DNA from: Candidatus Collierbacteria bacterium
GTDB taxonomy: Bacteria; Patescibacteriota; Microgenomatia; UBA1400; JACPES01
Reading direction: 5' to 3'
Assembly: GCA_016183365.1 (NCBI GenBank)
Contig: JACPES010000002.1
Coordinates: 93,831 to 157,830, forward strand
Length of the DNA: 64,000 nucleotides
Below the pieces are notes generated by a model. It saw only the letters and a program-made list of their open reading frames with translations. It made no database searches and was not told the origin of the DNA. Of this stretch, positions 43,208 to 61,288 are shown one piece after another. Within the stretch, counting starts at the first letter, position 1; each line of letters begins with the position of its first letter. Made by a program: the position numbers and the translations under genes.

Positions 43208-43210
<3 letters not shown>
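43152..43210 (-). promoter_or_regulatory. upstream element family B copy (directly 5' of ppa, overlapping the gyrB stop)
   Basis: The reverse complement reads atccgaattatccgaattctattcgtagcattcggatgaattcgtagattaggatagc, about 25 nt upstream of the ppa ATG. Confidence 0.6.
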
Positions 43211-45259
<2,049 letters not shown>

Positions 45260-46153: not shown

Positions 46154-47866
46154 ATGAATGCGTCTACTGCCCGGGCTACCATCTTAGATATCCTATTATC
46201 CGGAGGAGTTATAACCGATGATCAGTTTAACCGGGTTAAGTTGGAGTCTATCAATACCGGAATTCCGGCTGAGCAAATACTGATTAACCACAATTTTGTC
46301 GACCCTCAAAAATTAGCTCAAGCCAAATCCGAGCTGTATAACGTTCCTTACGTCAATCTTTTAGAAAGGGCGGCATCTCCCGAGGCCTTAAATACTCTAC
46401 CGGAAATAGTTGCCAGGCGGTATTTGGCGTTTCCGCTGTCTCTGGATAAAGACGCCGGTGTTCTATCAGTCGCTATGGTAAATCCTTTGGATTTGTCGGT
46501 GTTGGAATTTTTGGAAAAGAAAACCGGATTTAAAATTAAGCCTTTGATGGCCGCCGAAGTTGACGTCAAATTAATGATTGATGAAAAATATTCCCAGAGT
46601 TTATCAACCGAAGTTACCGAAGCTTTAAAAGAATCTGGCGAATCCGCACAAAAAGTTATCTCTGTTACCAGTTTAACTTCCGGAGTGGCTGTCAGAGAGG
46701 CCCCGATTACTAAAATTGTGGCCACTATTTTGGAATTTGCCATGAAATCCAGGGCATCTGACATTCATATTGAACCTCAAGAAGATAGGAGCCAGGTCAG
46801 ATACAGAATTGACGGTATTCTGCATGAAAAATTGATTTTGCCGCGGCGGGTTCATGACGCCGTAATTTCCAGGGTCAAAATTCTGTCGGAAATGAAAATC
46901 GACGAAAAGCGCGTTCCCCAAGACGGCCGGTTTACTTTTCGGGCCGGGGGGGAAGAAGTAGATTTGCGGGTTAGCTCTCTACCCACGGTTCACGGAGAGA
47001 AAATTGTGATGCGGTTGCTGAAAAAATCCGGACACATTCCGAGTTTGCCCGAGTTAGGGATAAGAGGCCGGGCCTTGAAAAACCTAGAGGACGCAATCGC
47101 CGTGCCTCATGGGATTATTTTGGTTACCGGTCCGACCGGTTCCGGCAAGACTACTACCCTATATTCGATTTTACACAAAATCAACACCCCTCGAGTCAAT
47201 ATAGTTACATTAGAAGATCCGGTGGAATATCAGATTGCCGGCATTAATCAGGTCCAAACCAATCCTCAAGCGGGGTTGACTTTTGCATCCGGTTTAAGAA
47301 GTTTTTTGCGCCAAGATCCGAATATTATTATGGTCGGAGAGATCCGCGATTCCGAAACCGCCGATTTGGCTATTCAGGCTTCCTTAACCGGGCACTTGGT
47401 TTTTTCCACTCTGCACACTAATTCGGCTGCCGGAGCCTTGCCGCGGTTATTGGATATGAAGGCGGAACCGTTTTTGTTAGCCAGTTCGATGACTTGCGTT
47501 ATGGCCCAAAGGGTGGTTAGAAAAATATGCGAGCATTGCAAGGAGGACTATCAACCTTCAGCCGAGGTAATAGAAAATGTCCGAAAAGTGTTGGATAAAC
47601 TGCTTCCGGCCGGAGAGTTTAAGCTCTACCGCGGCCGGAAATGTCCGGAATGCGGCGATACCGGCTACTTTGGCAGAATTGCCGTATTTGAGGTCTTGCC
47701 TATCAGTGAAAAAATTGGTAGATTGATATTAGAGCGCCGGCCGGCGATAGATATTGAACATCAGGCGGTGGAAGAAGGTATGGTTTTAATGAAACAAGAC
47801 GGATATTTAAAGGCTTTAGAAGGAATAACTTCGATTGAAGAAGTATTGAGGGTGGCCCAGACATGA
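46154..47866 (+). CDS. pilB: type IV pilus assembly ATPase PilB (GspE family)
   Basis: N1E domain, Walker A (GPTGSGKTT), Asp/His boxes and the tetracysteine motif CEHC...CPECGDTG. Confidence 0.85.
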   Translation: MNASTARATILDILLSGGVITDDQFNRVKLESINTGIPAEQILINHNFVDPQKLAQAKSELYNVPYVNLLERAASPEALNTLPEIVARRYLAFPLSLDKDAGVLSVAMVNPLDLSVLEFLEKKTGFKIKPLMAAEVDVKLMIDEKYSQSLSTEVTEALKESGESAQKVISVTSLTSGVAVREAPITKIVATILEFAMKSRASDIHIEPQEDRSQVRYRIDGILHEKLILPRRVHDAVISRVKILSEMKIDEKRVPQDGRFTFRAGGEEVDLRVSSLPTVHGEKIVMRLLKKSGHIPSLPELGIRGRALKNLEDAIAVPHGIILVTGPTGSGKTTTLYSILHKINTPRVNIVTLEDPVEYQIAGINQVQTNPQAGLTFASGLRSFLRQDPNIIMVGEIRDSETADLAIQASLTGHLVFSTLHTNSAAGALPRLLDMKAEPFLLASSMTCVMAQRVVRKICEHCKEDYQPSAEVIENVRKVLDKLLPAGEFKLYRGRKCPECGDTGYFGRIAVFEVLPISEKIGRLILERRPAIDIEHQAVEEGMVLMKQDGYLKALEGITSIEEVLRVAQT

Positions 47867-48915
47867 CAATACAAGAACTACTAGATATTGTTATTGCCAA
47901 AGATGCTTCAGACCTTCATATGGTAGTCGGGTCTCCTCCTTCAATCAGGGTTGACGGGTCGTTGGTTTTTTTAAGAAATGAACCGTTGACTAATGACGAG
48001 GCGATTCAGTTAATCAATTCTCTCTTGAGTTCGGAACAAAAGGATCAATTTCAGGTCAATAGAGAATTGGATTTGAGTTATCAGTATGCCGATAAAGGCC
48101 GATTCAGGATTAACGCTTATTTTCAACAAGATCACCCCTCGGCGGCTTTAAGACTGATTCATTCCAATATTAAAACCCCGGAGCAATTGCGTTTGCCGCA
48201 AATTGTTCACATTTTTGCCGGATTGAAACAGGGATTCGTGATGGTTACCGGTCCTACGGGACACGGAAAATCTTCAACCCTGGCGGCTATTATTGAAGAA
48301 ATCAATCAAACCCGGTCTGACCATATTGTCACAATTGAAGATCCGATTGAGTTTGTTTACACTCCCAAAAAGTCAATTATCTCCCAGCGGGAGATGAAAT
48401 ATGACACTCATGGGTGGGATATCGCCTTGAGGTCGGTTTTGCGGGAAGATCCGGATGTGGTCCTAGTCGGTGAAATGCGAGATTACGAAACCATCGCCGC
48501 CGCTTTAACTGTGGCTGAAACCGGCCATTTGGTTTTTGCCACCCTGCACACTAATTCAGCCGCCCAAACCATTGACAGAATTATCGATGTTTTTCCGGAA
48601 GAACAACAGCAGCAGGTCAGGCAACAATTGGCCGGCAGTTTAGAGGCGGTCATCTCCCAACGCTTGATTCCGGCTATCCCGGCCGGCCGGGTCCCGGCGA
48701 CGGAAATTCTGTTGGCGACTCCGGCTGTCCGGAACCTGATCCGAGAAGGCAAAAGCCATATGATTGATAACGTCATCCAAACTTCAGGAGCTTTGGGAAT
48801 GATGACCCTGGAAAATTCGTTGGCTGCCTGGGTTAGAGCCGGGGCGATTACCCTGGAAATGGCTAAAACCTACGCTTTAAGGCCGGGTGAAATTGAAAGG
48901 TTGGTACACGGTTAA
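47863..48915 (+). CDS. pilT: twitching-motility ATPase PilT
   Basis: Walker A (GPTGHGKSST) and the PilT AIRNLIREGK motif, here AVRNLIREGKSHM. Confidence 0.85.
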   Translation: MTIQELLDIVIAKDASDLHMVVGSPPSIRVDGSLVFLRNEPLTNDEAIQLINSLLSSEQKDQFQVNRELDLSYQYADKGRFRINAYFQQDHPSAALRLIHSNIKTPEQLRLPQIVHIFAGLKQGFVMVTGPTGHGKSSTLAAIIEEINQTRSDHIVTIEDPIEFVYTPKKSIISQREMKYDTHGWDIALRSVLREDPDVVLVGEMRDYETIAAALTVAETGHLVFATLHTNSAAQTIDRIIDVFPEEQQQQVRQQLAGSLEAVISQRLIPAIPAGRVPATEILLATPAVRNLIREGKSHMIDNVIQTSGALGMMTLENSLAAWVRAGAITLEMAKTYALRPGEIERLVHG

Positions 48916-48927
48916 ACCAAAAATTAA

Positions 48928-50130
48928 ATGCTTCTATTTTCCTATAAAGCTAAGGCGGTTGACGGACAGACTCTAAAGGGCCAAGTGGAAGCCCCGACCC
49001 GAGAAATGGCGGTGGAAATTCTGCGCCGCCGAAAATTGTTTGTAATTTACGTCATAACCGTTAAACCATCCATATTTGCTTTAATATCCAAAAAACTAAA
49101 GAAAGTCGGGTTGGACGATGTGGTAGCTTTTACTCGGCAGATGTCGACCATGGTTGCTTCGGGACTGCCGTTAACTGAAGCCCTAAAGATACTCCGCAGT
49201 CAATCAAATCCGGTGATGTCAGCCGTTATCGGAGAAATATTGCAGGATGTGGAGGGTGGGGTTAGTTTGGCCATGGCATTGGAAAAGCAGCGGGGGGTTT
49301 TTTCTCCGGTTTATATATCGTTGGTCAAAGCCGGAGAGTCGGCCGGGGTCCTGGATAATATCTTAACCCGTTTGGCGGTTAATCTGGAGAAAAACAAAGC
49401 TTTTTCTAATAAGGTTAAAGGCGCCATGATCTATCCGGCGATTGTGGTGGGGGCGATGATAGTCGTTGGTTTTATTATGATGATTTTTGTGATTCCAAAA
49501 TTAATGCAGATGTATCAAACCTTTAATGCCGAATTGCCTCTCCCAACTAAAATTTTGATTTCCAGTTCTACTGGGATGAAGAATAATGCCATATTGGTGT
49601 TCGGGATTTTGGCGGTGGTTGTAACCGGATTTTCGATGTGGGTTAAAACCGCAGACGGCCGACGACGGCTTGAACTGTTTATTTTTAAAGTTCCGATTAT
49701 CGGCAAGCTTCAAAAACAAGTGATTATGACGGAATTTACCAGGACTATCGGCCTTTTGGTCGGAGCCGGAATTTCGATTATTGACGCCTTAAAGATTTCG
49801 GCTGATTCGGTCGGAAATTCGGTTTACCAAAAAGCTCTTTTATTTGCCGCCTCTTCAGTCGAAAAAGGCCTGCCGTTGGCTGTGCCGATTGCCCAGAATC
49901 CATATTTCCCGCCGATTTTGGCGCAAATGATTTCGGTGGGCGAAGAAACCGGCAAAGTCGACGAGGTGTTGGCAAAATTATCCCTCTATTTTGAAGCGGA
50001 GAGCGAGCAGGGAGTGGCGGCCTTGACAGCCGCTATAGAACCGCTTATTATGATTGTGCTGGGAATAGGAGTTGGTTTTTTGGTGATCGCGGTTATCCTG
50101 CCAATTTACAATTTAACCAGCGCATTTTAG
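48928..50130 (+). CDS. pilC: type IV pilus platform protein PilC (GspF family)
   Basis: Two GspF repeats; a 400-aa polytopic protein. Confidence 0.85.
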   Translation: MLLFSYKAKAVDGQTLKGQVEAPTREMAVEILRRRKLFVIYVITVKPSIFALISKKLKKVGLDDVVAFTRQMSTMVASGLPLTEALKILRSQSNPVMSAVIGEILQDVEGGVSLAMALEKQRGVFSPVYISLVKAGESAGVLDNILTRLAVNLEKNKAFSNKVKGAMIYPAIVVGAMIVVGFIMMIFVIPKLMQMYQTFNAELPLPTKILISSSTGMKNNAILVFGILAVVVTGFSMWVKTADGRRRLELFIFKVPIIGKLQKQVIMTEFTRTIGLLVGAGISIIDALKISADSVGNSVYQKALLFAASSVEKGLPLAVPIAQNPYFPPILAQMISVGEETGKVDEVLAKLSLYFEAESEQGVAALTAAIEPLIMIVLGIGVGFLVIAVILPIYNLTSAF

Positions 50131-50232: not shown

Positions 50233-50265
50233 CTATATTGTAATTATATTGTAATTATATTGTAA
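50233..50265. repeat. 11-bp x3 tandem repeat (atattgtaatt) in the major pilin promoter region, following a GC-rich 60-bp segment
   Basis: ctatattgtaattatattgtaattatattgtaattaataaattat ... aggaggtg ... ATG. Confidence 0.75.
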
Positions 50266-50302
50266 TTAATAAATTATATGAGTGCGAGAGGAGGTGAAAA
50301 AA

Positions 50303-50839
50303 ATGTTAAGAAAGGGTTTTACTTTAATTGAATTATTAATCGTCATTTCCATCTTAGGAATTTTGGCGGTGGCTGTTTTATCAGCCATCAACCCGGTGGA
50401 ACAGCTCAAAAAATCCCGGGATGCCAGACGCAAATCCGACGTGGCTGAACTTTTAAACGCCCATGAGCGTTATTTCACCACTTTCGGCTGTTATGTTTGG
50501 GATAACTATTCCGGTGTCTGCACTAACGGAAACAATCCCAGCGCCACGATAGTCACCGCGGCCACGTTTGTGGCCGGCAGTGGAAACATCAACGGCGACT
50601 TACTCACTAAAGAGGAGTTAAAGGCTCAATTTTCTTCCCGGCAGACTGTAACTCTTGGCGAAATGTTTCTAACCGAATCTGCTACCAATCAGGTTTCAGT
50701 TTGTTTCTCGCCGGAGAGCCAATCTGCCAGAGCCGGAGGCTTGGGGCCATTGCGGACCCAAACCAACGCGACGGCCGGAAGTTGCGGAGCTGCCTACGCG
50801 GTCAGCGATGCTAATTGCAACGTGTGTGTGCCGCAGTAA
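50303..50839 (+). CDS. pilA: type IV pilin (probable major pilin; short MLRKG leader, G|FTLIELL)
   Basis: Strong RBS aggaggtg 7 nt upstream. Class III signal: leader, then FTLIELLIVISILGILAVAV. A C-terminal Cys pair is present. Confidence 0.7.
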   Translation: MLRKGFTLIELLIVISILGILAVAVLSAINPVEQLKKSRDARRKSDVAELLNAHERYFTTFGCYVWDNYSGVCTNGNNPSATIVTAATFVAGSGNINGDLLTKEELKAQFSSRQTVTLGEMFLTESATNQVSVCFSPESQSARAGGLGPLRTQTNATAGSCGAAYAVSDANCNVCVPQ

Positions 50840-50866
50840 TCCAAACATGGGTGGCCAACTTGGATA

Positions 50867-52060
50867 ATGTTAGTTAGAAGGTCACCCATGTTTTGGTCAT
50901 CTAAACAGATGGAAGAAAAATCAAGGACAGCTCTGTTTTGGGATCTGAAATGGATAATTTGGTTGGTGTTGGGTGTTAAGGCCGCGGTAATTGGAGTATT
51001 GTTTTTGGCTTATTTTAGTTTGCCCTATTGTCAAAAATGCCGAGAAGTTAACTTTTGGTATTATGCTAAAGGTGAGAAATCAGCGGTCTGGCCGTTGACC
51101 GCGTGGGATGCCCAACATTACATATATCTTGCGGAAAAAGGATATGGCCCGGGCGAGATGAGCAACGCTTTTTTTCCGCTATTCCCATTTGTTATCAGCT
51201 TATTCAATTTAATCACCGGTAATTCCGTATTTGCCGGTTTATTGGTTTCGGGAATTTTTGCCATCGGCTCGGCCGGACTTTTTTATTTGCTGGTAAGAAA
51301 AATATTTAATCATAAGATCGCATTTTGGTCGCTGGCGCTTTTTTTGTCTTTTCCAATCAGCATGTTTTTGCACTTGATTTACTCCGAATCGTTATTCTTA
51401 TTTTTATTATTGTTGTTGTATTGGGGATATTTTTCCGGAAAGATTGTTTTGATCTACGCAGCCGCTTTTTTCCTGCCATTGAGCCGCTTCCAGGGAGCCA
51501 TAGCAATGCTTCCGCTTCTTTTAACAGCCATCATCCCTGGTGAAAAAGAAAAACTAAAGTTATCTTTTCCAAAGCTATTCCTGACCCTGGGTTTTTTCGG
51601 CGGCGGAATTTTAGTTTATCTGGGTCTAATGAAATTTTGGACAGGGTCAGGCTTAGGAGGATTTGAAGCCTTAAAATTGTACGTTACTCGTTATTCGATA
51701 ACTAATCTGTTTAACCCGTTGCAATGGTTTATAGGAAATTTTCTGACGCTTCCTTATTCGCTACATGGTTTTAACACCAGCCTGATTGATCGGTCGTTTT
51801 TTATTTTCTTTTTGATTTGGTTGCGGCCGTCTTACCGGTTATTGCCCAGAATACTTTTTTGGCAGATGATTGTTTTGGGACTTTTGCCGGCCATGGCTGG
51901 ATATTTTATGTCATACCCCAGATATCTGTTGGCGGCTTTTCCGATATTTATTACTGCCGCTAAGATGATGAAAGGAAAAACGATTATTTTGGTGTTTCCT
52001 ATGCTATTGATGCAGGGATTATTTACCGTCTGGTATGGATTAAATTACTGGGTAGCGTAA
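50867..52060 (+). CDS. GT-C-fold membrane glycosyltransferase (PIG-V / GT87-like mannosyltransferase family)
   Basis: About 11 TM. WDAQHYIYLAEKGYG resembles the WDs.Y..IA..GY motif of PIG-V/DUF2029-type transferases. Confidence 0.45.
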   Translation: MLVRRSPMFWSSKQMEEKSRTALFWDLKWIIWLVLGVKAAVIGVLFLAYFSLPYCQKCREVNFWYYAKGEKSAVWPLTAWDAQHYIYLAEKGYGPGEMSNAFFPLFPFVISLFNLITGNSVFAGLLVSGIFAIGSAGLFYLLVRKIFNHKIAFWSLALFLSFPISMFLHLIYSESLFLFLLLLLYWGYFSGKIVLIYAAAFFLPLSRFQGAIAMLPLLLTAIIPGEKEKLKLSFPKLFLTLGFFGGGILVYLGLMKFWTGSGLGGFEALKLYVTRYSITNLFNPLQWFIGNFLTLPYSLHGFNTSLIDRSFFIFFLIWLRPSYRLLPRILFWQMIVLGLLPAMAGYFMSYPRYLLAAFPIFITAAKMMKGKTIILVFPMLLMQGLFTVWYGLNYWVA

Positions 52061-52064
52061 GGAT

Positions 52065-53672
52065 ATGAAAAAATTCCACCGGCAAAAGCGGAAAGCAGAA
52101 GCCGGAAAATATTGGGTCCTGGTTTTGGCGCTTTTTATGCTTGTTCGCTGGAATAGTATTACTGCTCCGTTTGAGCGCGATGAGGGAGAATACGCATACT
52201 CTGCGTGGCTTTTGAGAAATGGCGCCAGGCCTTATGTTGACTCGTTTCTCCAAAAGCCGCCAATGATTGTTTATACCTATGCGCTAGCCCAAGCAATTGA
52301 CGAGAACTCTGTCTGGCCACCCAGGATGTTAGCCTCATTATTTTCTCTGGCAACCATTGTCTTGGTTAGTTTGATCACCCGAAGAGATTTCGGAGAGAAA
52401 GCGGGAGTTGCGGCCGCCATCATTTTGGTTCCGATGTTAATGATTCCTCCATTATCGCCGTTTGCCGCCAACACCGAACATTTTATGCTTCTTCCACTAA
52501 TGGGGACAATAGCTATTGCGGTTATTCACAGAAGAGATAAGCATTTATGGCCATGGTTTCTCGCTGGCAGTTTGGGAATGTTTTCTGTCCTCTATAAACC
52601 AATCGCTCTACCGCCCCTCCTCTTTATGTTCATAGTTTGGGCAATTGAAAATTATATTTTATCCCGAAGTATAATTAATACCTTGCATCAATTAATGGTG
52701 GCGATTTTAGGAGCGGAAGCAGTAGCTGCGATCACCCTTGGATATTTTTTTCTTACGAATAGTATTGGGGAATTGTGGAAAACAGTAGTTGTGTTTAATC
52801 GCTACTATGTTGAGTCGTACGGATTTACCTTCTTTGCTTTACTTCGACTATTCCGTTTATTTCTCGCTCAATGGTGGATGTTATTTTTTCTTACCTTTTG
52901 CTTTTTTTGTTTCTTGCCGCGAAGATGGTGGTACTATGCGGGATTATTCTTTACTTCTCTTCTGTCGGTGGCTCCAGCTCCGTTTGAGCATTATTTTCTC
53001 CTCCTGATGCCATTTTGGGCAATCTTGGCGGCCGTGTCTATTGCTAGATTGGCTAAGTTAAGCAATGAATTGTTTGACCCTCATCCAAGTAATAGCGTAC
53101 AAACGGTTTCTTTATACTTGCTGACATTTCTGACAGTTGGATTGATACTATGGCCGAGCCGCGGCTTTTTTCTTTTATCTCCATCACAACTAACAAGTAC
53201 GTTTTATTGGGGTCCGGAACATCCGTTTGTCGAATCACAAATAGTTGGTGAACATTTGAAAGCGGCAACGAAATCAACAGATAAAGTGTTTGTTGCTGGA
53301 TCGGAAGCGCAAATTCTCTTTTATGCTCAACGACGCAGCGCTAGTCGGTTTGTGATTACATTTCCCCTAAACATTGATACTCCTTTGCGTGAAGAGTATC
53401 AGCGGCAAGCGATAGATGAGTTAACGACATTTCCACCGGCGGCAATTGTTTTATCCCGAAGAGCAACAAGTAACCTCTGGAATTCTGGGAGTCCGAGGAT
53501 TTTCGTTGATTACCTGAATAAAGTACTTCAAGACGAATATACGTTAGTGGGAGGAACAGTGTGGGAGGGATTATCATGGCATTGGCAGGAGTTGACAGAT
53601 ACGGAAATTCCTCGTTCGAGCAGTTTACTTCTTTTTGTACGGAACAAGTTTCACCGCGAGGGTAATGTATGA
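52065..53672 (+). CDS. GT-C-fold membrane glycosyltransferase (ArnT/PMT, GT39/GT83-like)
   Basis: N-terminal periplasmic-loop motif PFERDEGEYAYSAW (DE...YA). About 12 TM plus a C-terminal soluble domain. Confidence 0.55.
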   Translation: MKKFHRQKRKAEAGKYWVLVLALFMLVRWNSITAPFERDEGEYAYSAWLLRNGARPYVDSFLQKPPMIVYTYALAQAIDENSVWPPRMLASLFSLATIVLVSLITRRDFGEKAGVAAAIILVPMLMIPPLSPFAANTEHFMLLPLMGTIAIAVIHRRDKHLWPWFLAGSLGMFSVLYKPIALPPLLFMFIVWAIENYILSRSIINTLHQLMVAILGAEAVAAITLGYFFLTNSIGELWKTVVVFNRYYVESYGFTFFALLRLFRLFLAQWWMLFFLTFCFFCFLPRRWWYYAGLFFTSLLSVAPAPFEHYFLLLMPFWAILAAVSIARLAKLSNELFDPHPSNSVQTVSLYLLTFLTVGLILWPSRGFFLLSPSQLTSTFYWGPEHPFVESQIVGEHLKAATKSTDKVFVAGSEAQILFYAQRRSASRFVITFPLNIDTPLREEYQRQAIDELTTFPPAAIVLSRRATSNLWNSGSPRIFVDYLNKVLQDEYTLVGGTVWEGLSWHWQELTDTEIPRSSSLLLFVRNKFHREGNV

Positions 53673-55339
53673 GCCAAATTCCACCGAAGGCTCGGAGCTC
53701 ATATTTCCGAAAACTTATTTTACCCATAGCTTTGTTTAATGTATTGGCATTCAGCGTGCTGGGGAATTTATCTTTTCCTTTGCTTTGGAACGATGAAGCT
53801 GAAACCGCCATGTTTGGGCGACAAATTCTAAGGTTCGGTTATCCAAAGGTTTATGACGGAAAAAATGTTTTGAACTTATCCGAGTTTGGCGAATTGCTGA
53901 TTGACCAAAAAACCGATTCATATTTAGCCATGATGTGGGGGCAATATTTTTTAGCCGCGATTGGGGTGGCTTGGTCGCAATTGACCCGTGACATATACCT
54001 GAAAACCGCTCTGGTCCGATTGCCATTCGCATTGGTGGGAATAGCCGGAATTTACTTAATAGCCAGAACTTTAACTCAAGCGATAAAAAAAGATAACGAG
54101 CGGATTTGGCTTTTTACACTTTTTATTCTTTTAGAAATAATTTCAGTTCCGCTGGCTCTCCATCTCCGTGAAGCCAGGTATTATTCATTGACAATTTTTT
54201 TGACAGGAGCAATTTTGTATCTTTTCAGCCGTCGAAGCATCCTCATGTCTTTTGGTTTGAAACTCTATTGGTTGGAAATGACCATTCTTCTCTATCTTAT
54301 TTTCAACACTTTCTCACCGGCTTACTGGGCATTTCTGTTAATGTTGGTATCCTGGGCGTTTACCAGGCGTAAGGTCGGTCGGTCGGTTTTTCTTGATCTG
54401 GTCCCGGTCGGACTGTCTTTATTATTGGTTTTACCCACCGCGAATTTTTTCAAAACTATTGTTCAGTTCGAAAGTATTGCCGGAACCCATGGGATTGGGG
54501 TAATTAAATATGTAGCAAACATTGAGGCCGCGGTACATTTTTTTGGTCGGTATGACCTATTAATATTTTACGCGTTTCTAAAATTAATCCTGTTTTTTTC
54601 AGGGATCTACGGGGAAAGGAAAAAAAGGATTGACGTTACTCTGATTCAACCGTGGCGCCTGTCAAAGTTTCTATTTATTTCTTTGGCTAGTTACACCGCA
54701 GTCATAGGATTGATTCCTTACTATTTATTTGAGAGATACATTATCCCCATGCAGCCGATACTAACTGGGGCGATTGCGATTGATTGCTATCTGGTTTATA
54801 GGATCATCCGTGGCCGGTTTCGTAGTCAAAGCATTGGGGCAATTTTTCTCTTGATTCTGTTTGTGGTTTCTTTGGGGATCAGGGGCTTTTCAAATATGAC
54901 GGAGCCGATTAAAGGCCACGTCTATGAGTTGACTCACGTGTATAAAGGCCCCATAGACGATGTAATTTTATATCTGGCAAACAGATTTGAAAATCCGGAT
55001 CAGTTAATTATAGCCACAAATTATGAAGAACATGCTTACATGTTTTATTTGGGGAGCAAGACAATTATTGGATTTGTCGGCAACAATCTCGAAAATGACT
55101 TAAAAGAAAATCCGGACGTAATTATTCCCAGAAGGAATTCGGGGCGTAATTTCAAGGCGCTGGCATGGTTTCTTTCCCGCGGGCAATACCAGTTGATACC
55201 TTTTCCGTACAGAGATTTACCGGTTAATAATATACCCGAGATCAGAAACAATATCGGAATATTTCACCGTTATAAAACTGAAATCACCGATTGGGAAGAT
55301 GAAAAAATTGAGGTTTTTATTCGACGCGACGCCAGATGA
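53669..55339 (+). CDS. GT-C-fold membrane glycosyltransferase (ArnT/PMT-like)
   Basis: LWNDEAETAMFGRQI is a DE motif in the first loop. Polytopic with a C-terminal soluble domain. Translationally coupled to the upstream GT. Confidence 0.5.
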   Translation: MSQIPPKARSSYFRKLILPIALFNVLAFSVLGNLSFPLLWNDEAETAMFGRQILRFGYPKVYDGKNVLNLSEFGELLIDQKTDSYLAMMWGQYFLAAIGVAWSQLTRDIYLKTALVRLPFALVGIAGIYLIARTLTQAIKKDNERIWLFTLFILLEIISVPLALHLREARYYSLTIFLTGAILYLFSRRSILMSFGLKLYWLEMTILLYLIFNTFSPAYWAFLLMLVSWAFTRRKVGRSVFLDLVPVGLSLLLVLPTANFFKTIVQFESIAGTHGIGVIKYVANIEAAVHFFGRYDLLIFYAFLKLILFFSGIYGERKKRIDVTLIQPWRLSKFLFISLASYTAVIGLIPYYLFERYIIPMQPILTGAIAIDCYLVYRIIRGRFRSQSIGAIFLLILFVVSLGIRGFSNMTEPIKGHVYELTHVYKGPIDDVILYLANRFENPDQLIIATNYEEHAYMFYLGSKTIIGFVGNNLENDLKENPDVIIPRRNSGRNFKALAWFLSRGQYQLIPFPYRDLPVNNIPEIRNNIGIFHRYKTEITDWEDEKIEVFIRRDAR

Positions 55340-57413
55340 CATTTAATCCCACTGTTAACAACAGCGCCGCCGCCGCCATTGGACCAAATTTATGTAGATA
55401 ACTCGGTGTTTTCCACGTCAAATCCACATCCCCCCGGGCCCACAAAAACATATAGCCTGGAGTCACCCAAACTGGTTGGGAATAACTTCCGTTTCCGGTC
55501 GCGACCCAGTATGAGCTATAGGTAAACTTTATAAATATCGGCGCGGGATTAGGGGAGTCGACAGAAAAAGAAATTTTGGTCGGTTCGATTTTAAGATTGT
55601 TAATTTCCGGTTGAGTAAAATTAACTGCCGGCGGAATTTCGGGCAATTCTCTAACAATTAACTCTGATCTGTCGCTATTGATCCACCATTCACCCAGGTT
55701 GACGTTTTTGTCTAACCGGGGAACTTGAGATAAAGCTTCAACTAGAGGTTTAGTAGAAATTGTTTTGAGGTAATAGCGGGCTTGAAGTTGAGAACCGTCA
55801 GGTTCATCTAACATCAGTTTGGCAAATTCCGTGGCGCCTTCCGGCAATTCATCCTGTCCGTAGATGGTGGCGGTAACCAAGTTTATGCCCAAAATATCAG
55901 CAGTTTTGCCAATATCCAGCTCTAATTTTGGCCGTTTATCTAAATCACTAAAATCCGTTTCGTAGGTTCCATTTTTTCGGCTGTAGGGATCAATAGAGTT
56001 TTTCAGATTGTAATAAATCAATCCGTAGGGCGAGGATTCAAAAAACAATCCGGTGGTGCCGATTAAATTCTTGTTTTCTGCCGCTAGAAAATGTTCGGCA
56101 GCGTGAGGCAGTTGAAACACCTGGGCGTGACGCGAAACATCTATAACTCTTTGGGTGGCATCCCGGGCAGGGAAATCCAGCCAATCCAATTTCAGCCTAA
56201 CTTTTGGGTTATAGCTTCTAATTAGAAGAAGAATGACACCTAAGGCGATTACTCGCTGGGCCGCCGCAGAGAATTTTAAATCCGGCAGGTTTTGAGCGAT
56301 TACCAGAGGGACAAATAACTGAAAATACCAGGCGAAGCGATAGAAATGAATTCCCCTGATGCCGATTGATTGGAGGGAAATCGCGCTGACCTTGTCCAAC
56401 GCCGCTAAAACGGCTAGAATTAATGTTAAAACAGTCAAAGGCCGTTTTAGAGATTGAGAATTAATCGCCAAAATTAAGACGGAAAAAGCAATTATCCAGT
56501 GGATCAGAGGTGGGACTTCGGTCAGATTAAAGGCTCCGGCGGCGAAACTTGGGTCCAGCATGACCAGAATCCAAGGCAAACCGATGATGGCAGAAACAGT
56601 CATGGTTAAAATCCATTTTTTTATCTCCTCCTGGTTTTTGTTTTTATATTCGGTTATAAATGAGATCCCCAGAAAAATTAAGGCGACTATGGCGGTAAGC
56701 GGATGGGTTAGGAAAATTAGTCCCAACAAAACTGCCCGCTCGGGCCAAGTTTTGATAGACATAAACAGAAGCAATAACGCGGTAGCCAAAAGAGCCGGAC
56801 CGCCGCCGGTATAGACGGTGCCAAGGTAGGAGCCCAACATTCCGGGGCCGGAATAAAGAAACACCAATTGCATGGAGACTGCGGCTAAAATTCTTTTAGA
56901 TGGCGAAATTTTAAACTTCCCTGTTAATTTCCAGATGCCCAGCGTCAACAGTAAAAAACTAATGATTGTTATCGCGGCCGCGGCTGTTTTTTCTGATTCC
57001 GAAAAATTAATCAAAATTTTGAACAAGTAGTGGTATCCCCAGGGATACCGGCCGGTGGGATATCCGCCCCAAAAGCCGGTATCCCAGCCATTCTCCCAGG
57101 GAATCCAGTATAACTGTTGGGCTTTCTGGATATGTCCAGGCCAATCCCAGTACCAGATAAAATTGGGGTTTTGGGAAAAGAACATCAGAGTTTTGCCGAC
57201 AATCAAAATTGCTGTTAGAATATAAATGACGTTAGTTTTTTTGAGCCTAGTCGAAGAAACTAGCGAGGCAATGAATTTTTTCACCTCTGTATTATACATT
57301 GAAGGCGCCGTATTTGGAGCGGCTATCGGGAGTTTTTTGGGAGCGGTGATAGAGAGAGCAAAAAACAAAAAACAAAAAACAAAATTACTGTGGGGGCGGA
57401 GCTGGTGCGGCAA
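55317..57413 (-). CDS. large polytopic membrane protein with a C-terminal extracytoplasmic domain (GT-C / YfhO / oligosaccharyltransferase-like)
   Basis: 698 aa, with aromatic-rich loops (WDWPGH..WENGWDTGFWGGYPTGRYPWGYHY). The start is uncertain: 57413, 57299 or 57158. Its 5' end overlaps the pilD 5' end on the other strand. Confidence 0.4.
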   Translation of the reverse strand: MPHQLRPHSNFVFCFLFFALSITAPKKLPIAAPNTAPSMYNTEVKKFIASLVSSTRLKKTNVIYILTAILIVGKTLMFFSQNPNFIWYWDWPGHIQKAQQLYWIPWENGWDTGFWGGYPTGRYPWGYHYLFKILINFSESEKTAAAAITIISFLLLTLGIWKLTGKFKISPSKRILAAVSMQLVFLYSGPGMLGSYLGTVYTGGGPALLATALLLLFMSIKTWPERAVLLGLIFLTHPLTAIVALIFLGISFITEYKNKNQEEIKKWILTMTVSAIIGLPWILVMLDPSFAAGAFNLTEVPPLIHWIIAFSVLILAINSQSLKRPLTVLTLILAVLAALDKVSAISLQSIGIRGIHFYRFAWYFQLFVPLVIAQNLPDLKFSAAAQRVIALGVILLLIRSYNPKVRLKLDWLDFPARDATQRVIDVSRHAQVFQLPHAAEHFLAAENKNLIGTTGLFFESSPYGLIYYNLKNSIDPYSRKNGTYETDFSDLDKRPKLELDIGKTADILGINLVTATIYGQDELPEGATEFAKLMLDEPDGSQLQARYYLKTISTKPLVEALSQVPRLDKNVNLGEWWINSDRSELIVRELPEIPPAVNFTQPEINNLKIEPTKISFSVDSPNPAPIFIKFTYSSYWVATGNGSYSQPVWVTPGYMFLWARGDVDLTWKTPSYLHKFGPMAAAALLLTVGLNVIWRRVE

Positions 57414-58035
57414 TTGTAAAAGACAATTAAATTGGCGGGAAAATATTCCGTTGATTTCTTTTGTGTTCTTAAAAGGTAGATGCCGGACGTGCCGCTCCCC
57501 TATCCCCTACTGGCTGCCGTTGATTGAGTTGGCGGGGGCCGCCGCGGGCGCCGCTGTAGCGGCGCAAATAGGACTCATAAGTCTCATAGGACTTATAGGA
57601 CTTATTCTCGTAGCCGCGGCGCTGATTTGGGTGTTTTTTTCTGATTTGGTCTACGGGGTAATTCCGGATTTGGCGGTGGGGATCGGAGCCATAGGCTCCG
57701 TAATTTTCAATTTTCAATTTTCAATTTTCAATTTTGTTATAGCGGCACTTGGCGCGGCGGCATTTTTCTATTTTTTGGTTTTAGTAACCCGCCGCCGGGG
57801 GATGGGAATGGGCGACGCCACCCTGGCCGCGTTTTTAGGCCTATGGCTTGGTTGGTCCAAGATTTTATTGGCGGTGTGGCTGGCTTTTATTTTGGGAGCC
57901 GTAGTGGGATTGATCTTAATAGGGTTAAAATTAAAAAAGTTTGGACAAACTATTCCGTTCGGACCGTTTTTAATCGCGGCTTCTATAATTGCCGCCATGG
58001 CCAATGACAGTTGGATGAATATAATCGGATTATGA
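57271..58035 (+). CDS. pilD: prepilin peptidase (A24 family) PilD
   Basis: N-terminal tetracysteine (C..C...21...C..C: CGNCKRQ...CRTCRS) and Asp boxes (MGMGDATL). Contains 7-bp repeats. Confidence 0.8.
   Translation: MNFFTSVLYIEGAVFGAAIGSFLGAVIERAKNKKQKTKLLWGRSWCGNCKRQLNWRENIPLISFVFLKGRCRTCRSPIPYWLPLIELAGAAAGAAVAAQIGLISLIGLIGLILVAAALIWVFFSDLVYGVIPDLAVGIGAIGSVIFNFQFSIFNFVIAALGAAAFFYFLVLVTRRRGMGMGDATLAAFLGLWLGWSKILLAVWLAFILGAVVGLILIGLKLKKFGQTIPFGPFLIAASIIAAMANDSWMNIIGL
57702..57729. repeat. 7-bp x4 tandem repeat (aattttc) inside pilD; a second (aaaaaca x3) lies at 57361-57381
   Basis: aattttcaattttcaattttcaattttc encodes FNFQFSIFNF. aaaaacaaaaaacaaaaaaca encodes KNKKQKTK. Confidence 0.8.
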
Positions 58036-58457
58036 AAAATAATAGGATCGGCTTTACTTTGTTGGAAGTGTTGTTGGTTGTATCGATTGTGGGATTGTTG
58101 TCATCTGCGGTTTTCATCAACATTTCCCTCCAAATCAAAAAATCTCATGATGCTAAACGTAAAACAGATGTTCACGAGTTACAGGTGGCTTTGGAAACAT
58201 ACTATACTGATCAAGGCTATTATCCGTCTGGTCTGCCCCCCGCTGGTCAGCCCCTGACCAGTCCGGACGGTCAAACGGTATATCTGTCAAGAATCCAAAA
58301 AGATCCGATGGAGAAGGATCCTTTACTCTATGTCTATAACGCCACTCCAAGTAGTATGCCTATCAGTTACGATATCTGTGCTTTTAAGCTGGAATCCATT
58401 CCCGACGATCGGACACCGGGGAAAGACGAATCCTTTTGCTTGACTAATCGTCAGTAA
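58011..58457 (+). CDS. type IV pilin-like protein
   Basis: Leader, then G|FTLLEVLLVVSIVGLL class III signal. Confidence 0.6.
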   Translation: MDEYNRIMKNNRIGFTLLEVLLVVSIVGLLSSAVFINISLQIKKSHDAKRKTDVHELQVALETYYTDQGYYPSGLPPAGQPLTSPDGQTVYLSRIQKDPMEKDPLLYVYNATPSSMPISYDICAFKLESIPDDRTPGKDESFCLTNRQ

Positions 58458-58566
58458 ATTGCTATATTTGGTAATTGTTAAATTGTTAATTGTTAATAGA
58501 ATGCAATTAGTTCTGCGAAGCAGGATTTGGCTCTGCCAGACAATCAGCAATTAGCAATCAGAAATT

Positions 58567-58941
58567 TTGAAAAAACACGGCTTCACCCTCATTGAACTCC
58601 TCGTCAGCATATCCATTATTTCGGTTTTAACGGCTATAGGTTTGGCTAATTATGCCGTTAGCCAGAAACGGGCCCGCGATGCCAGACGGCAAGCAGACTT
58701 GGAATCGGTCAGATCGGCTTTGGAAATTTATCGGGCCGATAATTTGGCCACCGGTTACCCCAATACTACTTATGCCGGTTTATCAGCGACCTTACTCCCT
58801 AACTATCTTTCTCGGTTGCCGTTGGACCCTAAAAATACCGCTCCGTATATTTATGCTTATACCGGCGGCGGGAACACTTATACAATCTGTGCTACTCGGC
58901 TGGAGGGAACCGAGACGGCTTATTGTTTGACGCAGCCATGA
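58567..58941 (+). CDS. type IV pilin-like protein (TTG start)
   Basis: KKHG|FTLIELLVSISIISVL. Confidence 0.6.
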   Translation: MKKHGFTLIELLVSISIISVLTAIGLANYAVSQKRARDARRQADLESVRSALEIYRADNLATGYPNTTYAGLSATLLPNYLSRLPLDPKNTAPYIYAYTGGGNTYTICATRLEGTETAYCLTQP

Positions 58942-58944
58942 CGC

Positions 58945-59040
58945 GATCCTAATAAATCCGAATTCATCCGAATGCTCCGAATAGTATAGTATTAAATAGT
59001 ATTAGGATTATTCGGATGTCATTCGTAGATTTTGATCGCC
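58945..59040 (+). promoter_or_regulatory. upstream element family B copy; its internal ATG is used as the start of the next pilin-like gene
   Basis: atccgaattcatccgaatgctccgaat ... attattcggATGtcattcgtagattttgatcgcc. Confidence 0.6.
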
Positions 59041-59537
59041 ATCGTGGTTATTCTCTAATAGAAGTTTTAATTGCGGTAACCATCATTGGGATTTTGACCG
59101 GGTCCAGTTTGGTGGGATACAATCGGTTTCAAGGCCGTCAGGGGTTAAAAAGCGCCGGAGAACAATTGGTTTCAGACTTAAGGTTGACTCAACAAAAGGC
59201 TTTATCCGGGGAAAAACCGGATAATTGGTGTAATGGATCGGGTCAGACCTTAGCCGGTTGGGGATTGGAATTTATCACTCCACTTACTACATATAAGATT
59301 AAAGCGATTTGTTCCGATGTGTCAGTTAATCCCTCTACTGATAAGACCATTATTTTGCCAAATTCAGTGACTAAATTTGGTGGAGATTCATCTGTTGATT
59401 TTGCGGCGGTTGATGGCACAGCCAGCAATGCCAGTTTTATTTTAAGCCGGCAATTGGGGACATCTTCATCGCAAATTACGGTGACGACCACTTCTGCCGG
59501 ACTGATTTTTTTATCGCCGATTACTGATATTCCATAA
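59016..59537 (+). CDS. pseudopilin / minor pilin-like protein
   Basis: HRG|YSLIEVLIAVTIIGIL. Confidence 0.55.
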   Translation: MSFVDFDRHRGYSLIEVLIAVTIIGILTGSSLVGYNRFQGRQGLKSAGEQLVSDLRLTQQKALSGEKPDNWCNGSGQTLAGWGLEFITPLTTYKIKAICSDVSVNPSTDKTIILPNSVTKFGGDSSVDFAAVDGTASNASFILSRQLGTSSSQITVTTTSAGLIFLSPITDIP

Positions 59538-59652
59538 ATTAAATATGGAGAACCCGTTTCAAAACTCTTATTCTGTCATTGCGAGGAGTCTGCGACGTGA
59601 CAATCTGAAGCGAAAGACAGATCGTCACTCCCTTGACAAACTCGGCCTCACG

Positions 59653-60087
59653 ATGACTTTTGAAATAGGTTCGAAGCCTAAACGCACAGGCCAATCGCTG
59701 ATAGAAATTTTGATCGCCATTTCGGCTATCACCATAGTTCTAGTTTCATTGGTGGCGGCCGCCACCCGGTCTCTGTCGGGATCTGTTTCAGCCCGGACTC
59801 AAGCTTTGGCCACAAAATCTTCCGAAGAACAAATGGAGAAGATTAGGGCTTTTAGGGATCGGAATGGTTTGGCAAATATTACCTGCGCCGATAAATGCTT
59901 TCTAGATGATTCATTAACAAAATTAGCCAGCCCGCAAAATATCGACGTTCTTTCGGTCTGGTTTACGGTGGTTGTCCCCGGAAGTTGTCCGGTCGGAAAC
60001 CGCCAAGTTACTGTCATATCGCAATGGACAGATGGGGTCGGAACGCATCAGGCAAAATTGGTCAGTTGTTTTTCAGTATGGAAATAA
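59653..60087 (+). CDS. pilin-like protein (the ORF track extends to 59545 through a repeat motif)
   Basis: MTFEIGSKPKRTG|QSLIEILIAISAI. Confidence 0.5.
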   Translation: MTFEIGSKPKRTGQSLIEILIAISAITIVLVSLVAAATRSLSGSVSARTQALATKSSEEQMEKIRAFRDRNGLANITCADKCFLDDSLTKLASPQNIDVLSVWFTVVVPGSCPVGNRQVTVISQWTDGVGTHQAKLVSCFSVWK

Positions 60088-60590
60088 GAAAAGGATTTAC
60101 TTTGCTTGAGTTGTTGATGTTTGTGTCTTTGGTTAGTTTGATATTGGTCGGAATCACCCAAGTTTTGGGAGCCACCCTGGCCGGATCCGGCAAATCTCAA
60201 GCCATGCAACAGGTAAAGCAAAATGGCCAGTTCGCGATATCCACAATTTCCCGTTTATTACTCCAATCAAACGAAGTCACCGTCTGCGCCGGCAGCCAGC
60301 TTGATTTTACGATTTTGGAAAATGGTTCTACTTCAACATATAGGTTTGAAACAATTTTATTTAGTGAAACAAATTTATTTAGAATCCGTAAAACATATAA
60401 CGGAGTTCAATCTTGGCTGACTGACGAGAGAGTAAATGTGACTAATTTTGAGTGTAATTTGATACCCCCAGGGAATGGCCAGCCGGGCATCATCAATTTT
60501 TCTTTCAATATCGGTAAGCCGGGATTGTCAGTTGAGAATATTATTGCTAATATTAATTTTAGAGACAGCGTCTCTTTAAGGAACTATTGA
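60079..60590 (+). CDS. pilin-like protein
   Basis: MEIRKG|FTLLELLMFVSLVSLIL. The start overlaps the previous stop. Confidence 0.5.
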
Positions 60591-60606
60591 ATTAAAGTCC
60601 CGGAAT

Positions 60607-61284
60607 ATGTATGATGGGAATATGAATACTTTCAGGAGAAATGGCCAAGTGGCTATGGTGGTAATTTTGGTGGTGTTGGTGGGGTTGACTATCGGAGTAG
60701 CGATTTTAGGTCGTGGAGTTACCAATGTGGGGTTAAGCAACCAGGAAGAAGAAAGAGCCAGATCGTTTTCCGCCGCCGAAGCCGGAGTGGAAGATGCTCT
60801 CCGCCAGGATTTATTGTCAATTGTGGCAGGATCAGGAGGAGGGCAATTTAATGTTGGCGAATCGGCGGTGTCTTATACTGTGGCTAAATTAACCCATGTG
60901 ACTTCTGAAATTAATCCGGGGGAAGTGGTGACGGTCGACTGGAGCAAAAGCGGCGCCTCGTCATTTAGCGTAGCTTGGACCGGAAGTACTTGTTCTTCTA
61001 ATTTGGTGGCTATTACTATTACTTCTGCCGGAGCGGTAGTCCACTCGGTTCCGTCCTCTCCCGCCACTTTTCCTAAAAGTCCAGGCGGGCTAGTCAGGAT
61101 GAGATTTGCCGGTTGCCGGACAAATGTAACAATTGATGGAATCGGAGGAGACTTGTCTTTTTTTCAAGTTGATTCCGTGGGCACATTTGGGGAAGCGCAC
61201 TCAAAAGTTGAAGTGGTCAGGTCGGCCCCGGCGGCTTCAGGATTGCTTGATTTTGCCGTCTTTTCCGGTGCGGATATTGATTAA
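60607..61284 (+). CDS. PilX-like / minor pilin-associated membrane-anchored protein
   Basis: N-terminal NGQVAMVVILVVLVGLTIGVAIL helix. Confidence 0.4.
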   Translation: MYDGNMNTFRRNGQVAMVVILVVLVGLTIGVAILGRGVTNVGLSNQEEERARSFSAAEAGVEDALRQDLLSIVAGSGGGQFNVGESAVSYTVAKLTHVTSEINPGEVVTVDWSKSGASSFSVAWTGSTCSSNLVAITITSAGAVVHSVPSSPATFPKSPGGLVRMRFAGCRTNVTIDGIGGDLSFFQVDSVGTFGEAHSKVEVVRSAPAASGLLDFAVFSGADID

Positions 61285-61288
61285 TAAT

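Follow-up and report, generated by a model that had tools for sequence, protein, structure and literature searches.

Membrane proteins with a predicted GT-C fold between the major pilin and prepilin peptidase genes of a Collierbacteria-type pilus locus: a candidate variable glycosylation island

Introduction

Why should the type IV pilus locus of a CPR bacterium hold four large polytopic membrane proteins between the gene for its probable major pilin and that for its prepilin peptidase, and do these proteins put sugars on the pilus? Of the few surface machines conserved in CPR/Patescibacteria, type IV pili are one, and these ultrasmall bacteria are thought to rely on pili for host attachment. 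In cultivated Saccharibacteria pili drive host attachment, and pilin glycosylation there is only software-predicted and listed for future work (PMC11623550). The original prediction for the locus studied here, made from the DNA alone, described the four proteins, here called M1 to M4, as one cassette of GT-C glycosyltransferases that would modify pilin or surface glycan. We followed up this prediction in the window, which is the whole stretch of 64,000 nucleotides that was analysed, and in related pilus loci. The host had been described as CPR-like, in agreement with the naming of an identical protein as Candidatus Collierbacteria. The nearest relative, GW2011_GWA2_42_17, is found under both CPR1 and Collierbacteria in listings.

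Results

Organization of the pilus locus

The features of the locus are collected in Table 1. The ORF positions of the pilin, M1 to M4 and pilD are as first predicted, and so is the placement inside a type IV pilus locus, with an N_methyl pilin and pil genes on both sides. The PilB, PilT and PilC proteins are 86-89% identical to their counterparts in the related locus L006. Pfam scans of 20 other ORFs of the window returned housekeeping genes.

Table 1. Features in and around the pilin-pilD interval (positions in the window)
Feature	Position	Strand	Basis or remark
pilB	46154-47866	+	ORF; pilus ATPase upstream of pilin; Pfam T2SSE and T2SSF among the pilB, pilT and pilC orthologues of L006, L008, L009, L091
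pilT	47863-48915	+	ORF; pilus ATPase; orthologues in L006, L008, L009, L091
pilC	48928-50130	+	ORF; platform protein; orthologues in L006, L008, L009, L091
Promoter-like site	50023-50051	+	11/12 consensus matches; consensus match only
11-bp tandem repeat TATATTGTAAT, 3.2 copies	50234-50268	+	Ahead of pilin ribosome-binding site
Strong ribosome-binding site GAGGAGGTG	pilin gene	+	Downstream of TATATTGTAAT repeat; consensus match only
Probable major pilin, 178 aa	50303-50839	+	N_methyl, TIGR02532
M1, 397 aa, predicted GT-C of PIG-V/PMT_2 type	50867-52060	+	PMT_2 score
M2, 535 aa, GT39/ArnT-family GT-C	52065-53672	+	PMT_2 score
M3, 556 aa, GT-C of widespread family without Pfam model	53669-55339	+	
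M4, 660 or 655 aa, GT-C of small family without Pfam model	55317-57299 or 57284	-	
pilD, prepilin peptidase	57271-58035	+	A24_N_bact 1.6e-24; Peptidase_A24 1.1e-15
Minor pilins	58011-58457, 58567-58941, 59016-59537, 59545-60087, 59985-60590	+	N_methyl and T2SSG matches in block 58011-63558
225-aa protein	60607-61284	+	ORF
pilM	61280-62311	+	ORF; PilM_2 in L006-L009 orthologues
pilN	62312-62848	+	ORF
pilO	62845-63558	+	ORF

Comparison with the L001 orthologue (86% identity) moves the probable start of M1 to 50909. The translational coupling claimed for the genes after the pilin fits the 4-nt overlap of M2 and M3 and the 4 nt between M1 and M2, but not the 27-69 nt that separate the pilin gene from M1. 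A search for a terminator-like site between the pilin gene and M1 found none, and M1-M3 are probably co-transcribed with the pilin gene. M4 and pilD are divergent and their starts overlap by 14-29 bp; the maximal ORF of M4 extends to 57413.

Membership of the four proteins in the GT-C class

Each of M1-M4 carries an acidic motif after the first transmembrane helix, and the N-termini are positively charged. Together with the structural models, this charge would place the acidic loops on the outer face of the membrane. The predicted structures of the polytopic proteins match solved GT-C enzymes, and the fold matches include the GPI transamidase subunits PIG-U and GAB1. No match to Wzy_C (Pfam) or to TPR models was found in M1-M4, and the fold matches of M3 and M4 include no O-antigen ligase or PglL-type structure. 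The Pfam matches of M1 and M2, the fold matches and the conserved acidic loops thus support the original assignment of M1-M4 as GT-C-fold membrane glycosyltransferases and not transporters. The motifs quoted with that assignment, LTAWDAQHYIYLAEKGY in M1, PFERDEGEYAY in M2 and LWNDEAETAMF in M3, are all present.

In M1 the first outer loop holds a WDAQHY motif. The score of M1 with PMT_2 (PF13231, GT39/GT83-like) is marginal, 27.8 bits with a gathering cut-off of 26.1 bits. The window protein has no Mannosyl_trans2 match in Pfam at E <= 0.1, whereas its L001 orthologue matches that model (PIG-V, PF04188) with 29.4 bits over about one third of its length (cut-off 22.4). The assignment of M1 is based on Pfam scores barely over cut-off. 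M2 reaches 32.9 bits with PMT_2, holds its ERDEGE motif after the first transmembrane helix and is identical to a protein (P0136) named 'glycosyltransferase family 39' by NCBI; against PDB sequences it gave no match. M3 matched no Pfam or NCBIfam model. D42 and E43 of its motif are nearly invariant (present in 90% or more of 47 sequences), and its C-terminus is a small soluble alpha/beta domain. For M3, M4 and their homologues no PMT_2 match was found at E <= 0.1, so that their likeness to the PMT_2 family is in fold only.

M4 belongs to a family of 267 relatives (about 30-35 clusters at 50% identity) that has no Pfam model. The WDWPGH motif of its first outer loop is invariant, and D47 in this loop is conserved in all 15 orthologues as well as in 12 sequences across the wider family. 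Along with D47, the residues H194, H313, R316, R379 and K586 are invariant even in distant paralogues. The model of M4 predicts a helical membrane part to about residue 356, a beta-rich outer domain at about 360-625 and a final helix at 628-654. The original prediction called this protein YfhO-like or oligosaccharyltransferase-like. Its layout and predicted fold bear out this likeness, in that AglB, STT3 and PglB are the best or near-best fold matches, with DPY19, AftD, AftA and ArnT nearly equal. Family membership does not follow: M4 and five homologues have no Pfam YfhO (PF09586) match at E <= 0.1-1, M4 has no STT3 Pfam match, and a WWDxG motif is absent from the 15-sequence M4 alignment. 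The sole weak Pfam matches in M4 and its homologues are DUF6057 (16.5 bits, cut-off 29.8) and, in one relative, DUF6541. The domain class Acyl_transf_3 is known for glycan O-acylation, and one relative of M4 is fused to such a domain.

A resident gene and an inserted set

The arrangement was compared in nine related loci (L001-L003, L006, L007, L008, L009, L091 and L096). In each of them M4 occupies the interval from pilin to pilD, down to relatives with a PilC only 48% identical. It directly adjoins the pilin gene in L006-L009 and L091, whereas in the window M1 comes right after the pilin. The position of M4 is kept despite a strand flip: in L091, the locus with the 48% identical PilC, M4 is co-directional and ends 12 bp before pilD. 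A 3.8-kb contig (L092) encodes the same M4 protein as L091, with a pilin gene just upstream. M1-M3, on the other hand, are absent from five of the nine loci (L006-L009 and L091), which represent four or five lineages, and among the loci compared occur only in the window's own sub-lineage. Within that sub-lineage, L001 and L096 carry an unrelated 401-aa membrane protein in place of M2, with breakpoints at the gene borders. M4 is thus a conserved resident of the locus and M1-M3 are a lineage-specific insertion with a replaceable middle gene, which departs from the original view of a single four-gene cassette.

M4 is about 40% identical pairwise among the window, L006, L008 and L009, and 22-29% identical to L091. 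The divergence from L006 stands out, as the two loci share 85-89% identity in PilT, PilC and pilin. Such divergence is compatible with allele replacement as seen for glycan-specific enzymes.

How specific is the link to pili? Among the M3-family loci, pilus genes are nearby in 3 of 80 and not in the other 77, a GT2 gene is present in 28 and an M2-like gene in 24. The three pilus-linked loci are about the chance level for small genomes. Members of the M3 family are spread over CPR, Omnitrophota, Margulisbacteria and Myxococcota. The M2/M3-family loci L004 and L005, two further examples of a neighbourhood with GT2 and M2-like genes, are unlinked to pili. The proposed synteny of pilin and GT-C genes therefore holds for M4, linked to pilin and pilD in all nine loci, and fails for the M2 and M3 families, which are generic. 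Even for M4, weaker paralogues (E of about 1e-29 or worse) lie outside pilus loci, with neighbours such as VanY, PAP2 and ABC transporters, so that the pilus link is a property of the M4 subfamily. Conserved position must be read with caution as well: gyrB and holB likewise keep their place next to the pilus genes in both the window and L091, and since gene order is kept even among such unrelated genes, it is weak evidence of shared function.

Two further pilus loci have gained other GT-C genes at or beside their pil genes, independently. In L068 the order is pilT, pilC, pilin, transposase, a 555-aa protein, PMT_2 protein, M3 homologue (antisense), pilins and pilD. In L083 it is M2 homologue, methyltransferase, M3 homologue, PMT_2/TPR protein, pilB and pilC; a PMT_2-TPR protein is also present in L004 and L005.

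The major pilin

The pilin has the class III signal MLRKG/FTLIELL (N_methyl 6e-8, TIGR02532 5e-9), and its globular part contains six Cys and 21% Ser+Thr. A check for a Ser/Thr-rich region, proposed with the original prediction, showed that in all six pilins compared the conserved Cys73 is followed by a variable stretch rich in Ser, Thr, Ala and Asn. The window pilin is 85-87% identical to those of L001, L006 and L007. No change in the pilin was seen to accompany M1-M3, as loci with and without these genes have pilins within this same range of identity. The window pilin holds two N-x-S/T sequons, at Asn63 and Asn150 of the mature protein, NYS and then NAT; L008 and L009 have lost NYS, and NAT is missing from L001, L006, L007 and L008.

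Within the 64-kb window, neither an acceptor site nor a sugar or donor-synthesis gene was identified for M1-M4. Two GT2 queries run with phmmer returned no GT2 gene there, and general Pfam scans identified no flippase gene.

Discussion

A candidate glycosylation island

Then, what might M1-M4 do in a pilus locus? By position and by analogy to known systems, glycosylation of the pilus by these proteins is plausible. We give an even chance to the reading that a variable glycosylation island fills the pilin-pilD interval of the Collierbacteria-type pilus locus, in which M4 would be directed to pilin and M1-M3 would diversify the glycan. CPR bacteria have a single membrane. At its outer face, M4 would draw on a polyprenyl-phosphate-linked donor and, like TfpW, transfer its sugar or short glycan to a pilin before the subunit joins the fibre; the acceptor would most likely be Ser/Thr of the major pilin. 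M1-M3, inserted after the pilin gene in the window's lineage, may have been recruited from a toolkit widespread in CPR and elsewhere, which pairs a cytoplasmic GT2 that loads the lipid carrier with GT-C enzymes acting outside. Each of M1, M2 and M3 could then add one further sugar, and a swap of the middle gene would change the glycan. The pilin as acceptor, the O-linkage and the action of the enzymes in sequence are all inferred. In a bolder form, which we advance tentatively, M4 founds an undescribed GT-C family dedicated to glycosylating pilins in the pilus operons of Collierbacteria type (Microgenomates), and the pilin-pilD gap is a hot spot for the insertion, exchange and replacement of GT-C genes, the pilus sugars varying while the pilin stays near constant. 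Such variation could then be a means to shift host recognition or to evade pilus-specific phages.

The main competing explanation is that the four proteins serve general envelope glycosylation and act on a different extracytoplasmic acceptor, for example a lipoglycan, a wall polymer or a surface protein such as that of an S-layer, their site in the pilus locus reflecting only conserved gene order and a gap that tolerates insertion. Much of the evidence above is what this explanation would lead one to expect: members of the M2 and M3 families are common and seldom found with pilus genes, distant M4 paralogues adjoin unrelated genes, the pilin sequence is independent of the presence of M1-M3, and gyrB and holB keep their places likewise. 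Moreover, the relatives in kind YfhO and GtlB modify teichoic acids (PMC5836110). Against it stand the occurrence of the M4 subfamily only inside pilus loci (nine of nine related loci), the pilin-pilD position of M4 that outlasts a strand flip, and the different GT-C genes acquired by the L068 and L083 pilus loci. We regard envelope glycosylation as a serious contender whose chance is below even.

The other two alternatives concern the nature of M4 itself. Its fold matches could suggest an N-linked oligosaccharyltransferase of the AglB/PglB/STT3 kind acting on Asn sequons of the pilin, but DPY19, AftD, AftA and ArnT score almost equally, neither WWDxG nor an STT3 match was found, and the sequons are not conserved among loci, which together make this reading very improbable. 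It is also unlikely that M4 is a non-catalytic structural or assembly part of the pilus machine built on a GT-C scaffold, with M1-M3 as unrelated passengers. The conserved place of M4 in the pil operon would suit such a role, CPR pilus machines are without several classical parts, and PIG-U and GAB1 show that a subunit of GT-C fold can have a role other than glycosyl transfer, but the six invariant residues are of the types expected for catalysis or lipid-phosphate binding, and the acyltransferase fusion of one relative speaks for an enzyme.

With pilin glycosylation as the working proposal, M4 with its invariant Asp47 is a concrete, genetically testable candidate enzyme. Natural variation is at hand in loci with M4 alone, with M1-M2-M3-M4 or with the alternative middle gene. 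The analysis also assigns two sizeable membrane-protein families without a Pfam model, those of M3 and M4, to the GT-C glycosyltransferases. Should the pilin be the acceptor, the literature we found describes no earlier pilin-glycosylation island in CPR bacteria, which would make this the first.

Comparison with known systems

Archaeal type IV pilins and archaellins are substrates of AglB. AglB, STT3 and PglB match M4 in predicted fold but differ from it in the motif and Pfam match noted above. The O-oligosaccharyltransferases of pilins that are of Wzy_C type (TfpO/PilO, PglL, TfpM and PglS) are unlike M1-M4, none of which matches Wzy_C; TfpO is encoded beside pilA and moves a lipid-linked glycan onto pilin in the periplasm (bioRxiv 10.1101/2020.04.19.049825). 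From the GT39/GT83 enzymes of PMT_2 type (the protein O-mannosyltransferases Pmt1/2/4, and ArnT) M3 differs in its small C-terminal alpha/beta domain, which takes the place of MIR or TPR domains.

In known systems a GT2 enzyme loads the lipid carrier and a GT-C enzyme acts outside the membrane (PMC5836110, PMC11127046). The GtrB/GtrA/Gtr*, CsbB-YfhO, GtlA-GtlB and GT136 systems share this GT2 and GT-C layout with the GT2-containing M3-family loci, but they decorate O-antigen or teichoic acids and not pilins. YfhO resembles M4 in its many transmembrane helices, large outer domain and last helix, which is a likeness of layout and not family membership. For enzymes of this kind, the acceptor is unpredictable from homology (PMC5836110).

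The closest parallel is TfpW of Pseudomonas aeruginosa group IV strains (Pa5196 and PA7), a GT-C arabinofuranosyltransferase/oligosaccharyltransferase. Its gene lies directly downstream of pilA and is necessary and sufficient for pilin arabinosylation, in a region beside pilA that is an island of alternative accessory genes (bioRxiv 10.1101/2020.04.19.049825). Like M4, TfpW is a GT-C membrane enzyme of about 650 aa whose N-terminus is cytoplasmic, whose first outer loop carries an acidic motif and whose C-terminal domain is large and lies outside; its gene too lies beside that of the major pilin. The two differ in the C-terminal domain (TPR repeats in TfpW; beta-rich and followed by a final transmembrane helix in M4), in the first-loop motif (DDx versus WDWPGH) and in the host, a proteobacterium for TfpW and a CPR bacterium for M4. 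Unlike tfpW, M4 usually lies on the strand opposite the pilin gene, and the likeness is put forward as analogy and not as homology. If the pilin is the acceptor, M4 and TfpW would represent two apparently independent recruitments of a GT-C enzyme beside a pilin gene, with that of M4 being the second.

Gene layout of the type IV pilus locus

A complete type IV pilus locus takes up the right-hand third of the window; its genes follow the order pilB, pilT, pilC, prepilin, M1-M4, pilD, five or six minor pilins, pilM, pilN and pilO. M1 to M4 are the four polytopic membrane proteins encoded between the probable major pilin gene and the prepilin peptidase gene pilD. There are 4 nt between M1 and M2 and a 4-nt overlap between M2 and M3, and no terminator-like site was found between the pilin gene and M1. 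M3 and M4 are convergent, and their 3' ends share 23 bp (55317-55339). M4 diverges from pilD, whose ATG on the plus strand is at 57271, with a head-to-head overlap of 14-29 bp for the two possible M4 starts; the annotation of related loci shows a similar overlap of 17 bp in L006 and none in L001, L008 and L009.

Coordinates of the pilin gene and the four membrane protein genes in the window
Feature	Coordinates	Strand	Remark
prepilin (probable major pilin)	50303-50839		
M1	50867-52060	+	probable start 50909, from orthologue comparison
M2	52065-53672	+	
M3	53669-55339	+	
M4	55317-57299	-	alternative start 57284

A perfect 11-bp tandem repeat, TATATTGTAAT, is present in 3.2 copies at 50234-50268, directly 5' of the pilin ribosome-binding site GAGGAGGTG. 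Every unit contains TATATT, which resembles a -10 box, and the repeat is missing from the equivalent region of L006. Just 5' of the pilus locus lies gyrB (43208-45229), with only holB between, an arrangement also seen in the related locus L091. Further upstream, at 37378-38406, there is a XerC/phage-integrase family gene, and after it comes a PaaX-like gene (38549-39409), whose product has a Cas2-like domain at its centre; housekeeping genes surround both. Base composition gave no sign of recent foreign origin, as the GC content is 0.415-0.457 over 50-58 kb and 0.39-0.47 window-wide. The organism belongs to the Collierbacteria (CPR/Patescibacteria), the name under which proteins identical to M2 and M4 are deposited. 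Its nearest relative, GW2011_GWA2_42_17, goes by two labels, 'CPR1' and Collierbacteria.

GT-C identity of M1-M4

All four membrane proteins are GT-C glycosyltransferases. The motifs quoted in the original prediction are present, each right behind the first transmembrane helix, and M3 and M4, the two that were modelled, do not model as transporters. M2 matches Pfam PMT_2 with 32.9 bits (cut-off 26.1), and an identical protein is named 'glycosyltransferase family 39' by NCBI. M1 passes the same PMT_2 cut-off marginally with 27.8 bits, while its 86% identical orthologue matches Mannosyl_trans2 (PIG-V) with 29.4 bits (cut-off 22.4). The M3 and M4 families, both lacking a Pfam model, are assignable to the GT-C fold. 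At least 90% of 47 sequences keep the first-loop D42/E43 of M3. In M4, the first-loop D47 does not vary, not even among paralogues with just 17-23% identity, and the same holds for H194, H313, R316, R379 and K586. Comparison of M1 and M2 with PDB sequences gave no match, and that of M1-M4 with NCBIfam nothing useful. When the profiles of the M4 and M3 families were aligned with each other, no sequence relationship could be detected (probability 1%).

M4 had been proposed to be YfhO-like or oligosaccharyltransferase-like. The YfhO-like layout was upheld, whereas the sequence tests for both YfhO and STT3 failed. Assignment of M4 to the STT3-type N-oligosaccharyltransferases was rejected: the WWDxG motif is absent and the pilin has two N-x-S/T sequons, neither of them conserved, so that an AglB-like N-linked mechanism is unlikely.

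M4 is a conserved resident of the pilus locus

M4 is a conserved resident of the Collierbacteria-type pilus locus, because it is present in all nine related loci examined (L001-L003, L006-L009, L091 and L096). L001-L003 and L096 come from close relatives; their M4 is 88-89% identical to that of the window and the layout is the same. L006 to L009 have an M4 that is 38-45% identical, in the order pilB-pilT-pilC-pilin, M4 on the opposite strand, pilD, minor pilins and pilMNO, and M1-M3 are absent from all four. In the more distant L091 (M4 profile E 2e-40, PilC 48% identical), pilin-pilin-M4-pilD lie on a single strand and M4 ends 12 bp short of pilD. M1-M3 are an insertion restricted to the window's own sub-lineage, and the idea of one four-gene cassette was thus not borne out.

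The M4 sequences of the window, L006, L008 and L009, the four Collierbacteria-like loci compared, are about 40% identical pairwise. The divergence from L006 (M4 41% identical) is striking, since identity there is 89% for PilT, 86% for PilC and 85% for the pilin. L008 and L009 are more distant, and in them M4 is surpassed in divergence by PilN, PilO and some minor pilins. The M4 allele of the window lineage differs from that of its near relatives, and this difference goes together with the M1-M3 insertion. The major pilin is unusually conserved in the comparison with L006-L009, being 85-87% identical where PilD, PilN and PilO are just 62-69% identical; pilins normally belong to the faster-evolving proteins of a pilus.

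At E <= 1e-3 the wider M4 family comprises 267 relatives, 38 of them at E <= 1e-30. The weaker members (E 1e-29 to 1e-18) have no pilus genes near them, so the pilus link is a property of a subfamily of approximately 30-35 clusters at 50% identity. A scan of species-representative genomes returned one M4 locus, on the contig of L006; its narrow peptide patterns may limit the yield, and the count says little on rarity. One homologue, P0309 (1051 aa), is a natural fusion of Acyl_transf_3 (27-353) with an M4-like domain (413-1044), which hints that the wider family acts on glycans that are also O-acylated.

Exchange of M2 and distribution of the M2 and M3 families

The DNA of the window and of L001 is about 84-85% identical over 50286-52065 and 53702-58196. 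The M2 gene is without counterpart in L001, and the breakpoints are the M2 borders. Its place is taken in L001 (1832-3037) and L096 (7953-9158) by an unrelated 401-aa polytopic protein, which matched no Pfam model and may be another unrecognised GT-C. This protein carries a FQDIDYY motif behind its first helix. Another relative retains the M2 type (P0137, 85% identical).

The M2 and M3 families are large, extending at about 35-45% identity to Patescibacteria, Omnitrophota, Margulisbacteria, Myxococcota and others. Among 80 metagenome loci of the M3 family that were fetched and scanned by script, 28 contain a GT2 gene, 24 an M2-like gene and eight a DUF2142-like gene. Pilus-machinery genes lie beside the M3 homologue in only three (L011, which is the contig of L001, L068 and L083). 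Three of 80 is not clearly in excess of chance in small genomes, which argues that both families are general-purpose and occasionally recruited to pilus loci. In a Komeilibacteria locus (L005, 8525-17035), GT2, methyltransferase, M3 homologue, M2 homologue and PMT/TPR genes form a cluster, which adjoins gyrB; another genome groups an M3 homologue with DUF2142, TPR proteins, PMT_2 and GT2. In L083, an M2 homologue, a methyltransferase, an M3 homologue and PMT_2/TPR lie directly 5' of pilB-pilC.

L068 is a different pilus locus with a similar arrangement, its pilin-pilD gap being filled by other GT-C genes. The order is pilT-pilC-pilin, IS200-like transposase, a 555-aa membrane protein (matching neither the M3 nor the M4 family), PMT_2, M3 homologue on the opposite strand, three pilins and pilD. 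The transposase gene (15815-16402) separates the pilin gene from the inserted GT-C genes, and its presence in the gap suggests that mobile elements helped to fill it.

Pilin-directed or general envelope glycosylation

What, then, might these enzymes modify? By analogy with TfpW, the GT-C pilin arabinosyltransferase of Pseudomonas aeruginosa group IV strains, M4 would transfer a sugar or glycan onto a pilin ahead of assembly. The role of M1-M3 would be to lengthen or diversify this glycan, and the exchange of M2 would give it another structure. We give this pilin-directed reading about an even chance. The Ser/Thr-rich region looked for in the pilin is there, as a variable Ser/Thr/Ala/Asn-rich stretch behind Cys73 in six of six pilins compared. 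It falls roughly in the region of the sites modified by TfpW (Thr64 and Thr66), a match that is suggestive only.

The main rival, which we hold possible at less than even chance, is general envelope glycosylation. That GT-C enzymes draw on polyprenyl-phosphate-linked donors at the outer face of the membrane is established for the fold, and for the paired systems whose lipid carrier is loaded by a GT2 (PMC5836110, PMC11127046). Several observations weaken the pilin-directed reading. A donor-synthesis GT2 gene was looked for in the 64-kb window and none was found, nor is a flippase among the genes identified there. Pilins are 85-87% identical whether or not their loci contain M1-M3. The fold matches of M4 are distant ones, polysaccharide-acting enzymes among them, and conserved gene order in these genomes extends to unrelated neighbours such as gyrB and holB.

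Comparison with known systems

TfpW (646 aa) is a known precedent for a GT-C gene next to a pilin gene; encoded just 3' of pilA, it is both required and sufficient for arabinosylation of the pilin (bioRxiv 10.1101/2020.04.19.049825). Wzy_C transferases adjacent to pilin, such as TfpO, are also known. TfpW has TPR repeats, whereas in M4 the outer domain is beta-rich and there is a terminal helix, which makes up its YfhO-like layout; their first-loop motifs differ, as do the phyla. For CPR bacteria, pilin glycosylation has been predicted by software only and flagged for future work (PMC11623550), and the literature searched yielded no account of GT-C genes in the pilus loci of CPR bacteria. The M4 locus provides a specific, testable candidate for pilin glycosylation in CPR.
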